From assembly GCF_013122565.1 (NCBI RefSeq), contig NZ_CP053258.1: a stretch of 64,000 nt of DNA. One strand, 5' to 3'. The position numbers were made by a program, and so were the translations under genes. Shown in pieces: positions 13,988-41,520 of this stretch. Below the pieces are notes generated by a model. That model was given only the letters and a program-made list of their open reading frames with translations, was not told the DNA's origin and did no database searches. This stretch comes from Escherichia coli. Lineage in GTDB: Bacteria > Pseudomonadota > Gammaproteobacteria > Enterobacterales > Enterobacteriaceae. The stretch's first letter is position 1. Each line of letters opens with the position of its first letter.

Positions 13988-14635
13988 TTATTCGTTAGTG
14001 GCAGGATTACGAAGCGTGGGGCACAGGAGATACATCTCCAGTAAGATGGCGACGTAATCGCGGGCTTCTTTTTTAAGATCAAAAGATTGCGGGGCAAAGA
14101 GCCAGTTTTCCATCAGGCCGGAAATATAGCCGCGCATAATAATCGCTGCCCGACGCGTCATTAAATCCGCAGGCAACATTTTCGCTTCAATACAATGTTT
14201 TAACGTTTGTTCTATACGGTCATAACTTTCCAGACAGAGATTACGTTGTGCCTGTTGCACAACAGCCATTTCTCCGACAAATTCGCATTTGTGGAATATA
14301 ATCTCCATCAATAATCGACGCCGTTCTTCTGTCACCGTGGATTCAAGAACATGAATTAATATCTCTCTTAATACTGAGAGTGGATCGCCAGGGAATTTTG
14401 CCTGATACTCAAGCTCTAGTTCACCAATATTGGATTCTGACAGTTCCCAGATCTCACTGAACAAATCCGACTTGTCTTTAAAATGCCAGTAGATTGCACC
14501 GCGCGTAACGCCAGCTGCTTTTGCAATCTCGCCCAGCGAGGTGGATGATACCCCCTGCTGTGAGAAAAGACGTAGAGCCACATCGAGGATGTGTTGGCGC
14601 GTTTCTTGCGCTTCTTGTTTGGTTTTTCGTGCCAT
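13988..14635 (-). CDS. acrR: TetR-family repressor AcrR
   Basis: 215-aa [55 protein letters not shown]...; divergent from acrA. Confidence 0.96.
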
Positions 14636-26143: not shown

Positions 26144-27430
26144 TTACGCGTTATAGGCATTCTCGCCGTGACTGTTGACATCCAGCCCTTCTCGCTCCTG
26201 CTCTTCCGGTACACGCAGACCAACCGTCAGATCCGCCAGTTTGTAGCCAATAAATGCCACCACACCGGACCAGACGATCGTAATGGCGATGCTTTCCAGC
26301 TGTACCAGCAACTGATGGCCCATCGTCACACCTTCAGCGAAGCCCACGCCACCCAGCGAACTGGCGGCAAAAATCCCAGTCATGATACAGCCGACAATGC
26401 CACAAACGCCGTGCACACCGAAGACATCGCAGGGATCATCCACCCGCAGCAAGCGTTTGAGCATAGTAACGCCCCACAAGCCCGCCAGACCAGCTACCAC
26501 GCCGATAATCAACGCGCCGCCAACCCCAATGTAGCCACACGCTGGCGTCACGCCGACCAGACCGGCAATCGCGCCAGAACACGCTCCCAGCAGAGAAGGC
26601 TTACCACGCAGCGCCCATTCACCGAAGATCCAGCCAAGAATTGCCGCCGCCGTTGCGACCACAGTATTCACAAATGCCAGTGCCGCGATTTCATTCGCCG
26701 TGCCCGCTGACCCGGCGTTAAAGCCAAACCAACCAATATAGAGAATGGCAGTACCGGTGAAGACCATTGGCAGGTTGTGCGGTTTAAACGCCTCTTTGCC
26801 GAAGCCCACGCGTTTGCCTATCAGATACGCGCCCACCAGACCGGCGATTGCGGCGTTAATATGCACCACCGTGCCACCCGCGAAATCCAGCGCACCGTGA
26901 GAAGCCAGCAAACCACCGCCCCACACCATATGCGCAATCGGAATGTAAGAGAGCGTCAGCCATACCACCACGAAAATCAACACAGCTGAGAAGCGGATTC
27001 GTTCCGCCAGCGCCCCAACGATCAAGCCGACGGTAATGCAGGCAAACGAGCCCTGAAACGCCACGTGGATATACTGATAAATGCTGCCCATCACCGCCGT
27101 CAGTTCGATGTTTTTTAGCATCAACCAGTTAATGTTGCCGAAGAAGTTGTTGCCCTCACCAAACGCCAGCGAGTAACCGTAAACCACCCAGAGAATACAG
27201 ACCAGTGCAAACGTCACCGTCACCTGCGTCAGCATCGACAGCACGTTTTTGCCGCGAATCAACCCACCGTAAAACAGGGCAATCCCCGGAATAGTCATAA
27301 ACAGCACCAGCGCAGTACAAATCATCATAAACGCATTGTCGGCTTTATCGGCCACCGCAGGTGCAGCCATTACCAGTCCCGGCAGCATCGCCAGTGAAGC
27401 AAGCCCAGTTTTTATCGTCGCTATCTTCAT
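26144..27430 (-). CDS. amtB: ammonium transporter AmtB
   Basis: 428-aa polytopic ORF MKIATIKTGLASLAMLPGLVMAAPAVADKADNAFMMICTALVLFMTIPG... Confidence 0.97.
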   Translation of the reverse strand: MKIATIKTGLASLAMLPGLVMAAPAVADKADNAFMMICTALVLFMTIPGIALFYGGLIRGKNVLSMLTQVTVTFALVCILWVVYGYSLAFGEGNNFFGNINWLMLKNIELTAVMGSIYQYIHVAFQGSFACITVGLIVGALAERIRFSAVLIFVVVWLTLSYIPIAHMVWGGGLLASHGALDFAGGTVVHINAAIAGLVGAYLIGKRVGFGKEAFKPHNLPMVFTGTAILYIGWFGFNAGSAGTANEIAALAFVNTVVATAAAILGWIFGEWALRGKPSLLGACSGAIAGLVGVTPACGYIGVGGALIIGVVAGLAGLWGVTMLKRLLRVDDPCDVFGVHGVCGIVGCIMTGIFAASSLGGVGFAEGVTMGHQLLVQLESIAITIVWSGVVAFIGYKLADLTVGLRVPEEQEREGLDVNSHGENAYNA

Positions 27431-27459: not shown

Positions 27460-27798
27460 TTACAGCGCCGCTTCGTCGGCTTCGCCGGTACGAATACGAA
27501 TGACGCGTTGCAATTCAGCGACGAAGATTTTGCCGTCGCCAATTTTTCCGGTGTAAGCCGCCTTACTGACGATATCGATCACTTCATCGAGTTGGTCATC
27601 AGCAATCGCCACATCAATTTTTACTTTTGGCAGGAAGTTGACGCTGTATTCCGCCCCCCGGTACAGCTCGGCATGCCCTTTCTGACGCCCGAAACCTTTC
27701 ACTTCGGTGACGGTCAGGCCCTGAATACCAATGGAAGATAACGCTTCACGAACGTCTTCCAGCTTGAATGGTTTGATTATCACGGTCACCAGCTTCAT
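27460..27798 (-). CDS. glnK: nitrogen regulatory protein PII-2 (GlnK)
   Basis: ORF 27460-27936; internal start gives MKLVTVIIKPFKLEDVREALSSIGIQGLTVTEVKGFGRQKGHAELYRGAEYSVNFLPKVK... (112 aa). Confidence 0.96.
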   Translation of the reverse strand: MKLVTVIIKPFKLEDVREALSSIGIQGLTVTEVKGFGRQKGHAELYRGAEYSVNFLPKVKIDVAIADDQLDEVIDIVSKAAYTGKIGDGKIFVAELQRVIRIRTGEADEAAL

Positions 27799-27850
27799 AG
27801 ATCCCCTCCGGTCAGAATTCGGTAATGGTTCTGCTACACGAAGAAGGTAT

Positions 27851-27866
27851 TGCAAGCGGTGTGCCA
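27851..27866 (-). promoter_or_regulatory. sigma54 promoter (TGGCAC-N5-TTGCA) of glnK-amtB
   Basis: Minus strand reads TGGCACACCGCTTGCA about 55 nt upstream of the glnK start, a consensus -24/-12 element; glnK is known to be NtrC/sigma54-dependent. Confidence 0.85.
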
Positions 27867-27978
27867 GAAATGAAAAACGAGAAAGAGAGCAGGAAGTTAA
27901 GAAGTTTGAAAATGAAAACGCACTATGACAGTGCACAGTGCGTTACATTTTTGCACCAACGATGAAATATTGCGCTAT

Positions 27979-31525
<3,547 letters not shown>

Positions 31526-36047: not shown

Positions 36048-38493
<2,446 letters not shown>

Positions 38494-39165: not shown

Positions 39166-41520
39166 CTATTTTGCAGTCACAACCTGCATGCCAGACGGTT
39201 CATTTTGCAGCGCCAGAGTCAGAACTTCCTCAATGCGCTTCACAGGATGAATGTCCAGATCGGCAATTACGTTGTCAGGAATCTCTTCCAGATCGCGTTT
39301 ATTTTCGAACGGAATTAACACTGTTTTAATCCCGCCGCGATGCGCTGCCAGTAGTTTTTCTTTCAAACCACCGATCGGCAGTACCTGACCACGCAGAGTG
39401 ATCTCACCGGTCATTGCCACATCGGCACGAACCGGGTTACCGGTCAGGCAAGAAACCAGCGCGGTGCACATAGCAATACCAGCACTCGGACCATCTTTCG
39501 GCGTCGCACCTTCCGGTACGTGGACGTGGATGTCGCGTTTTTCGTAAAAATCAGGGTTGATCCCCAGTTTTTCCGCACGCGCACGAACCACCGTTAATGC
39601 CGCCTGAATGGACTCCTGCATCACTTCGCCGAGCGAACCGGTATAGGTCAATTTGCCTTTCCCCGGAACACATGCGGTTTCAATGGTCAGCAAGTCACCG
39701 CCCACTTCAGTCCACGCCAGACCGGTTACCTGACCGACACGGTTTTCGTTATCCGCGCGTCCATAGTCAAAACGCTGAACACCAAGGTAGTCATGCAGGT
39801 TGTCGCCGTTAATTTCGATATGTTTTAATGACTTATCGAGCAGTAACTGCTTAACCGCTTTACGGCACAGCTTGGAGATTTCACGCTCCAGACCACGCAC
39901 GCCCGCCTCACGGGTGTAGTAACGAATAATGCCGATAATGGCGCTATCGTCGACGGTCAGCTCACCTTTTTTCAGTGCATTACGTTCAATCTGCTTCGGC
40001 AGCAGGTGACGTTTGGCGATGTTCAGTTTTTCATCTTCGGTATAACCGGAGAGGCGAATCACTTCCATACGATCCAGCAGCGGTGCCGGAATGTTCATGG
40101 AGTTCGACGTCGCGACAAACATCACGTCGCTGAGATCGTAATCCACTTCCAGGTAGTGGTCGCTGAACGCTACGTTCTGCTCGGGATCCAGCACTTCAAG
40201 CAGTGCAGAGGCCGGATCGCCTCGCATGTCAGAAGACATTTTGTCGATCTCATCGAGCAGGAACAGAGGGTTTTTCACGCCCACTTTCGCCATTTTCTGG
40301 ATCAGTTTACCCGGCATAGAACCGATGTAAGTACGGCGGTGACCACGGATTTCCGCTTCATCACGCACGCCGCCCAGCGCCATACGGACATATTTACGCC
40401 CGGTGGCTTTGGCAATGGACTGACCCAGGGAGGTTTTACCTACCCCCGGCGGCCCAACCAGGCAGAGGATCGGTCCCTTGATTTTGTTGACACGGCTTTG
40501 AACCGCAAGGTACTCAAGGATGCGATCTTTCACGCGCTCCAGACCATAATGGTCGGTATCAAGGATTTCCTGCGCCTGACGCAGGTCTTTTTTGACCTTG
40601 CTACGCGCATTCCACGGCACCTGAACCATCCAGTCGATATAACCACGCACTACGGTCGCTTCTGCCGACATCGGAGACATCATTTTCAGCTTCTGCAACT
40701 CTGCTTCCGCTTTCTCTTTTGCCTCTTTCGGCATTTTCGCCGCATCGATTTTGCGCTTCAGGGCTTCGTTTTCGTCCGGCGCGTCATCCATTTCACCGAG
40801 TTCTTTCTGAATAGCTTTCATTTGCTCATTCAGATAGTACTCACGCTGGGATTTCTCCATCTGCTTTTTAACGCGGTTGCGAATGCGTTTCTCAACCTGC
40901 AGCAGATCGATTTCCGATTCCATCATTGCCATCAGATATTCCAGACGTTCGTTAACGTCGGACATCTCCAGAACGGACTGTTTGTCAGCCAGTTTCAGCG
41001 GCATATGTGCAGCAATGGTATCCGCCAGACGCGCCGGATCGTCGATGCTATTCAGCGACGTCAGCACTTCTGGTGGGATCTTTTTGTTCAGCTTGATGTA
41101 GCCTTCGAACTGGCTGATTGCAGTACGCACCAGCACTTCCTGTTCCCGCTCATCAATGGTCGGCGACTCCAGATACTCCGCCTTCGCAGAAAAGTGTTCG
41201 CCATTGTCAGAGAGCGCAGAAATACGCGCGCGCTGTAACCCCTCGACCAGCACTTTGACGGTGCCGTCAGGCAGTTTCAGCATCTGCAATATAGAGGCCA
41301 CGGTCCCGACGGTGAAAAGATCGTTTACACCCGGCTCATCCGTTGAAGCTTCTTTCTGCGCGACCAGCATAATTTTTTTATCATGGTCCATCGCCGCTTC
41401 CAGACAACGGATAGATTTTTCCCGCCCGACAAATAAGGGGATGACCATGTGCGGATAAACCACCACATCGCGCAGCGGCAATACGGGGATTTCAATGCGT
41501 TCAGAACGCTCAGGATTCAT
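39166..41520 (-). CDS. lon: ATP-dependent protease Lon
   Basis: ORF 39166-41565; internal start gives [44 protein letters not shown]... (784 aa); Walker [10 protein letters not shown], catalytic PKDGPSAG. Confidence 0.97.

Follow-up and report, generated by a model that had tools for sequence, protein, structure and literature searches.

The window analysed in this study, a stretch of 64,000 nucleotides of Escherichia coli DNA, contains on its minus strand the genes mdlB, glnK and amtB in this order, and our analysis concerns the spacer that separates the first two (Table 1). The features of this spacer include an element with the properties of a sigma-54 promoter, a palindromic dyad and a half-site that both resemble binding sites of the activator NtrC, a terminator-like hairpin that overlaps with the dyad, and a pyrimidine-rich heptamer preceding the predicted start of transcription. 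Two open reading frames that extend across the promoter, one of 158 residues in which glnK would be prolonged as far as a GTG at 27936, upstream of its own start, and an antisense frame of 65 residues at 27731-27928, were dismissed as mechanical calls.

Table 1. Positions of genes and sequence elements in the mdlB-glnK-amtB region of the window.
Feature	Position	Strand	Remarks
mdlB stop codon	27981..27979	minus	gene order mdlB, glnK, amtB
NtrC half-site TGGTGCA (candidate)	27952..27958	minus	perfect half-site; would form the right half of a dyad at 27968..27952, centre -120
Alternative register of a second NtrC site, TGCAAAAATGTAACGCA (candidate)	27955..27939	minus	centre -107; 5 mismatches; 20 bp upstream of the dyad
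Terminator-like element	27909..27944	minus	hairpin 27944..27917, then TTTTCATTTT at 27918..27909; overlaps NtrC site 1
NtrC site 1 (candidate), 17-bp dyad TGCACTGTCATAGTGCG	27919..27935	minus	centre 27927 = -87; assigned by consensus match and conservation
Sigma-54 -24/-12 element CTGGCACACCGCTTGCA	27867..27851	minus	GG at 27865-27864, GC at 27853-27852
CT-rich heptamer CCTTCTT	27847..27841	minus	-7 to -1; anti-Shine-Dalgarno insulator (Levy et al. bioRxiv 10.1101/086108)
Predicted +1	27840	minus	rule: motif centre + 19 (Bonocora 2015); 42-nt 5' UTR
glnK Shine-Dalgarno sequence GGAGGGG	27803..27809	minus	within conserved block GGAGGGGATCTATG
glnK coding sequence	27460..27798	minus	112 aa, PII-2
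amtB coding sequence	26144..27430	minus	428 aa, second gene of the operon

The sequence-only reading had described a consensus -24/-12 element on the minus strand upstream of glnK, and a motif scan has confirmed this assignment. The sequence TGGCACACCGCTTGCA at 27866..27851 is the sole exact match to TGGCAC-N5-TTGCA in the 64-kb window, and the addition of a C at its 5' end yields the 17-mer listed in Table 1. Within the pattern TGGCAC-N5-TTGCW, the GG and GC doublets of the element are placed exactly one helical turn apart, and the centre of the 17-mer (27859) is found on the correct strand, 61 nt upstream of the glnK ATG at 27798. For a quantitative comparison we have used a weight matrix based on the motifs of a sigma-54 ChIP-seq study (Bonocora et al. 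2015), 131 of which, from 135 in all, were employed for training. The four motifs left out are the one of glnK and the further high-stringency ChIP sites that fall in the window (yajG, acrR and clpP). In this RpoN scan, which the same reading had suggested as a check, the glnK 17-mer scores 14.66 bits and occupies rank 2 of 128,000 positions in the window, thereby exceeding 58% of the 131 training sites. The held-out yajG, acrR and clpP sites were recovered at ranks 3, 5 and 6, and the first rank is held by a match inside ybaV that is contained in the low-stringency ChIP-seq list. Since random sequence of 64 kb would hold on average 1.43 sites of the same or a better score, the motif by itself does not go beyond chance. 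The chance of finding so good a site on the correct strand in the 180-bp spacer preceding glnK is about 0.002.

The remaining top matches of the matrix are all published ChIP-seq sites and are located at 36269-36285 on the plus strand (antisense to ybaV, from the low-stringency list), at 46376-46392 on the minus strand (antisense to yajG), at 14594-14610 on the plus strand (antisense to acrR) and at 43896-43912 on the minus strand, upstream of clpP. A further sigma-54-like 17-mer, CAGGTATGTTTTTTGCA at 55894-55910 on the minus strand, scores 14.15 bits at rank 4 and is absent from the high-stringency ChIP list.

The relation of the described element to published work is immediate. The comparison with the characterised K-12 promoter, which had equally been proposed in the sequence-only reading, revealed a spacer between mdlB and glnK that is identical to the one of K-12 MG1655 at every aligned base (100%), and published data on the glnK promoter thus apply directly to the DNA studied here. 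The identical 17-mer constitutes the sigma-54 ChIP-seq site OS03, which was assigned to glnK with a signal 18-fold above threshold and a predicted start 42 nt ahead of its ATG (Bonocora 2015), and it is also listed as RpoN gSELEX motif for the mdlB/glnK spacer (Table S2). Among 5,426 complete E. coli genomes, 5,423 carry the 401 bases surrounding the promoter, in each case between mdlB and glnK. In four divergent E. coli strains the spacer contains single nucleotide polymorphisms, none of which affects the dyad or the TGGTGCA half-site, and one is located inside the sigma-54 17-mer at a non-consensus position. A wider comparison, comprising 79 loci of close relatives of GlnK and five loci of Enterobacteriaceae obtained by exact-protein look-up, shows that the sigma-54 core is conserved upstream of glnK in all 20 loci of Enterobacterales, where its distance to the ATG amounts to roughly 50-100 nt, and to about 60 nt in Enterobacteriaceae. 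Collectively, the -24/-12 element is the promoter of glnK.

The start of transcription in Table 1 is a prediction whose underlying rule was tested on glnAp2 of MG1655, where it places the NtrC dyads at exactly -140 and -108, which are the published positions of these sites. The predicted start at 27840 also agrees with the location of a CT-rich heptamer that is centred at -4 in the work of Levy et al. The element CCTTCTT is the one that was mutated in glnKp in that study (Levy et al. bioRxiv 10.1101/086108), and the only RNA to contain it is the one that reads through from upstream. With respect to the insulators described there, glnKp of the window carries the same CCTTCTT, which is a feature of the read-through RNA and not of the activation mechanism. 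This distinction is reflected in our folding of the read-through RNA, where the heptamer pairs with the GGAGGGG of the glnK ribosome binding site; an RNA starting at 27840 does not contain it. A footprint of NtrC at glnKp or a mapping of its start is reportedly part of earlier work by Atkinson et al. in 2002 and van Heeswijk et al. in 1996.

The activity of the promoter and its dependence on NtrC are documented by several lines of published evidence. The mRNA of glnK was not readily detected in a strain carrying a deletion of glnG and was restored by complementation, and a 39.7-fold peak in NtrC ChIP-seq was assigned to glnK-amtB. An NtrC gSELEX peak is located in the mdlB/glnK spacer. The promoter is described as depending exclusively on the phosphorylation of NtrC, with a specific activity that is 400-fold higher in starved cells, and it drives reporters as a sigma-54 promoter. 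In Salmonella, a fusion of the orthologous glnKamtB promoter increased from 1.1 to 1,778 Miller units upon nitrogen limitation in a sigma-54-dependent manner. These results bear on the question of whether the sigma-54 motif could be a non-productive site, with glnK expression being due to a different promoter or to transcripts that read through from mdlAB. Such a view might be entertained in light of the fact that most sigma-54 ChIP-seq sites of E. coli reside within genes and have no known function (Bonocora 2015), and that the glnK promoter was listed in EcoCyc as 'predicted' at the time of that study. It is countered by the NtrC dependence of the glnK mRNA, by the described exclusive requirement of glnKp for phosphorylated NtrC and by the activity of the promoter in reporters, and equally by the sigma-54 dependence of its Salmonella orthologue with its about 1,600-fold regulation by nitrogen. 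A scan of the mdlB-glnK spacer for sigma-70 promoters has not revealed any sigma-70-like promoter, and both the terminator-like element and the anti-Shine-Dalgarno insulator oppose expression by read-through. We thus regard a non-productive sigma-54 site at this position as extremely improbable.

The second element that had been noted in the sequence-only reading is a palindrome of the form GCACT-N5-AGTGC, which was placed at about 27922-27938. The palindrome is present, although its coordinates were 2-4 bases off: the sequence GCACT-ATGAC-AGTGC (GCACTATGACAGTGC) resides at 27920-27934, inside the 17-bp dyad. The distance of roughly 70 bp that was given in the same reading is accurate, since 68 bp separate the centre of the palindrome at 27927 from that of the sigma-54 17-mer, which follows downstream at 27859. 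Relative to the consensus of NtrC sites, TGCACCAnnnTGGTGCA with its core GCAC-N7-GTGC, the dyad matches at 10 out of 14 positions and contains an exact core. The palindrome is a full dyad of two half-sites, but a weak one. Within the mdlB-glnK spacer it is the best dyad of the NtrC type. Its bare occurrence is weak evidence for a function in the binding of NtrC, as the number of matches is close to the one expected by chance: the window holds 34 17-mers with up to four mismatches from the consensus compared to an expected 30.8, the probability of encountering such a 17-mer in any zone of 100 bp is about 5%, and GCAC-N7-GTGC is found twice where 1.85 occurrences are expected. For the sigma-54 element and the dyad, it is placement and conservation, not the rarity of either motif, that exceed chance. 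The only other GCAC-N7-GTGC match in the window is GCACTTTGACGGTGC at 41250-41264 on the plus strand.

The conservation of the dyad becomes apparent in the comparison of orthologous loci. A dyad of the NtrC type (TGCACy....TrGTGCr) is found upstream of glnK in 20 of 20 loci of Enterobacterales and it is also present in many glnK loci of Pseudomonas and other gammaproteobacteria. At the aligned position, Salmonella, Klebsiella pneumoniae and Enterobacter kobei contain dyads with only one or two mismatches. A candidate NtrC site at the distance of an enhancer, as it had been proposed from the sequence, is thus borne out by the best dyad of the spacer, centred at -87 and kept in all of these 20 loci; enhancers of this kind are expected about 80-150 bp ahead of a sigma-54 start. 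The second pronounced feature of the upstream region is the sequence TGGTGCA, which is located 33 bp upstream of site 1 and which is invariant in alignments of Enterobacteriaceae, with the same offset of 33 bp found in Citrobacter koseri, E. kobei and K. pneumoniae. The active oligomer is expected to nucleate on two or more neighbouring dimer sites, which would here consist of one full dyad and either this half-site at -120 or the weak dyad at -107, leaving the register of the second site ambiguous.

The distance between the dyad and the predicted start differs between species in a way that is reminiscent of the pitch of the double helix. It amounts to -87 in E. coli and E. albertii, -97 in Citrobacter, -108 in E. 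kobei, -117 or -118 in Salmonella and Superficieibacter, -129 to -131 in Klebsiella and Photorhabdus, and -140 to -142 in Enterobacter, Yersinia, Rahnella and Acerihabitans. Taken over all loci whose sigma-54 site is good, this spacing fits best to a period of 10.5-10.7 bp with a Rayleigh R of about 0.7, and the value of -87 is in phase. The nominal p-values of 1e-7 to 1e-11 are inflated by the relatedness of the species, with the data containing six or seven distinct rungs. Such a ladder is predicted if the activator works by looping and has to be on the same face of the helix as the polymerase, and the pattern suggests that evolution may have altered the spacer between dyad and promoter by full turns of the helix only (-87, -97, -108, -118, -130, -141). 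Salmonella, Klebsiella, Citrobacter and Enterobacter have glnK promoters that share with the one of E. coli the gene order mdlA-mdlB-glnK-amtB, the sigma-54 core, the dyad and a run of T following it, whereas their spacers between dyad and promoter are longer by about 10, 21, 31, 42 or 53 bp and their dyads are nearer to the consensus, with one to three mismatches compared to the four found in E. coli. The Salmonella promoter is also distinguished by the lack of the TGGTGCAAAAATGTAACGCAC block.

The window contains a further NtrC-like 17-mer inside the coding region of mdlB. This sequence, AGCACCAGAATGGTGTC at 28121-28137, shows three mismatches to the NtrC consensus and is located at -289 relative to the start of glnK. 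It raises the possibility that the palindrome might be a chance match, with NtrC acting through TGGTGCA at -120 or through the 17-mer in mdlB, which is nearer to the consensus than the palindrome and which recurs in related species, and it was noted above that the palindrome by itself stays within the expectation of chance. The palindrome is present and in phase in every orthologous locus, and it approaches the consensus to within one or two mismatches in Salmonella, K. pneumoniae and E. kobei. The mdlB-internal sequence, in contrast, is found at distances of 193 to 226 bp from site 1 that show no phasing. Moreover, the 17-mer encodes the peptide DTILVL, which is conserved in ABC transporters, and its recurrence is explained by this coding function. 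We have thus rejected 28121-28137 as an enhancer site and consider the match as probably coincidental. That NtrC would bypass the palindrome altogether appears very unlikely, and we regard the palindrome, with considerable confidence, as the main NtrC site of the promoter.

The published NtrC ChIP-seq interval 471741-471821 (coordinates of U00096.2) maps to 27799-27879 of the window, where it covers the core promoter and the 5' UTR and resides 40 bp downstream of the dyad. Due to this location, the experiment confirms NtrC at the locus and does not resolve the palindrome as its site. What is established in the literature for this very sequence is the occupancy of the region by sigma-54 and NtrC and the dependence of the glnK mRNA on NtrC; the bases that would form the NtrC sites, the point where transcription would start and the geometry of looping are predictions of the present analysis. 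In light of the described evidence, there is little doubt that the segment is glnKp, from which the glnK-amtB operon is transcribed in dependence on NtrC and sigma-54, in a form that is identical to K-12. There is no difference to the K-12 promoter, since the segment is the same element in another copy of the genome, and our finding is the already-known glnKp and nothing new.

The arrangement of the elements suggests a mechanism for the activation of glnKp. Prior to activation, sigma-54 RNA polymerase would be held in a closed complex on the 17-mer at 27867..27851. Upon nitrogen limitation, phosphorylated NtrC would bind the dyad at -87, with its binding presumably assisted by the TGGTGCA half-site that is located three helical turns further upstream. 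The protein would then oligomerise and reach the polymerase by looping of the intervening spacer of roughly 60 bp to open the promoter at the expense of ATP, and transcription of glnK-amtB would begin near 27840. With one moderate dyad complemented by weak or half sites, glnKp would need more phosphorylated NtrC than glnAp2, so that glnK would be turned on later in starvation; a higher requirement for NtrC compared to glnAp2 has been described for glnKp.

The comparison with glnAp2 illustrates similarities and differences in the architecture of both promoters. Like glnKp, glnAp2 combines a sigma-54 -24/-12 core with upstream NtrC dyads that are located on the same helical face. The spacing of 32 bp between sites 1 and 2 of glnAp2 is close to the 33 bp that separate the dyad of glnKp from its half-site. 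However, glnAp2 contains weaker sites in addition to two strong dyads at -140 and -108, which have one and two mismatches, whereas glnKp carries a single dyad with four mismatches at -87 and a half-site at -120, thus making its enhancer weaker and moving it closer to the promoter. The weaker enhancer fits the later activation of glnKp compared to glnAp2.

The palindrome is embedded in a second structure that could exert its function on the level of RNA. On the strand of the genes, the arms AACGCACTGTG and CATAGTGCGTT enclose the loop CACTGT to form a hairpin at 27944..27917 that begins 34 nt past the stop codon of mdlB. A scan for terminators has flagged this hairpin with a stem of 11 pairs, a stability of -14.6 kcal/mol and six T in the following eight nucleotides, and an 86-nt RNA of the region folds with -23 kcal/mol, corresponding to a z-score of -2.57 compared to shuffled sequences. 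The palindrome might thus primarily or additionally be the stem of an intrinsic terminator of mdlAB (AACGCACUGUG...CAUAGUGCGUU, followed by UUUUCAUUUU), which would stop read-through into glnK, and we find the chances of this interpretation evenly balanced. Besides the scan and the folding energy, its position behind mdlB speaks in its favour, since mdlA-mdlB precedes glnK in the same orientation in 14 of 14 loci of Enterobacterales tested. So does its distribution: in all 14 loci of Enterobacteriaceae the dyad is part of a hairpin with a stability between -6.6 and -17.8 kcal/mol, and five to eight of the next eight nucleotides are T, whereas the dyad is kept and the T-run is absent in all six loci of other Enterobacterales (Yersinia, Rahnella, Acerihabitans and Photorhabdus). 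The NtrC sites of glnAp2 and nac are also not followed by a T-run.

The dyad that persists in these six loci equally marks the limit of the interpretation, as an element that outlives the T-run, that matches the consensus of NtrC and that stays in helical phase with the promoter cannot owe its conservation to termination as its sole function. In an alignment of eight related sequences, 93% of the cells of the hairpin are paired and one pair covaries, and the observed values of pairing and covariation are reached by 5 of 500 shuffles. The covarying pair 23-36 is CG in four sequences and UA in four, and it is broken in none. The register of the dyad shows no covariation, and its position 12, which is either A or G, covaries perfectly with a base outside of the dyad instead of its dyad partner. 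This evidence in support of a hairpin is tempered by the fact that it concerns a single pair, which among eight related sequences might reflect a single evolutionary event, and by a register of the hairpin that varies between species and that coincides with the register of the dyad in Salmonella and K. pneumoniae. The two searched Term-seq supplement sets, which are perhaps incomplete, contain no entry for a 3' end of mdlB or glnK, and mdlAB is weakly expressed. An Rfam search of the spacer has returned only a spurious sub-threshold match to a snoRNA inside mdlB.

The T-runs themselves might serve a different role. A direct repeat AAATGAAAA, which reads TTTTCATTT on the strand of the genes, is present at 27868-27876 and 27910-27918 with both copies exactly 42 bp apart, one of them abutting the -24 element and the other NtrC site 1. 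As an alternative to a tail of a terminator, the T-runs could be phased A-tracts that bend the loop, and the repeats could be phased T-tracts helping to bend a loop of short length.

The two functions do not have to exclude each other. In Enterobacteriaceae, the 3' arm of the conserved hairpin, with the U-tract placed next to it, would be formed by the right half of the dyad, and some of the sequence conservation in its surroundings may serve the RNA hairpin rather than NtrC. We tentatively consider that in this family one stretch of DNA might be both the enhancer to which NtrC binds at glnK and the intrinsic terminator of mdlAB, which would both shield and activate a promoter of zero background, a proposal whose probability we place slightly below even. 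No publication on the sharing of enhancer and terminator or on spacing in whole turns was found in a limited search of the literature.

The described results are of little weight for annotation, as they re-identify a sigma-54 promoter that is among the best known in E. coli. Their value is that of a positive control, where promoter and enhancer were located to within a few bases from sequence alone. The overlap of the enhancer with a terminator-like hairpin and the quantised spacer could be of interest for the engineering of sigma-54 promoters and the insulation of silent promoters. Both of them, the overlap and the ladder of helical turns, are side observations and would become findings only with experimental support. 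The sequence-only reading had also concluded that nitrogen control of glnK-amtB is intact. This holds for the cis elements and for the reading frames of glnK and amtB, but it overreaches for the control as a whole, which cannot be deduced from the window since ntrBC, rpoN, glnD and glnB are encoded outside of it.

A final observation concerns the genome of strain DH1Ec169 (NZ_CP012127.1), a derivative of K-12 DH1, where the query matches in two pieces with a coverage of 71%. This suggests that the 3' end of mdlB near the glnK promoter was engineered or rearranged in this strain.
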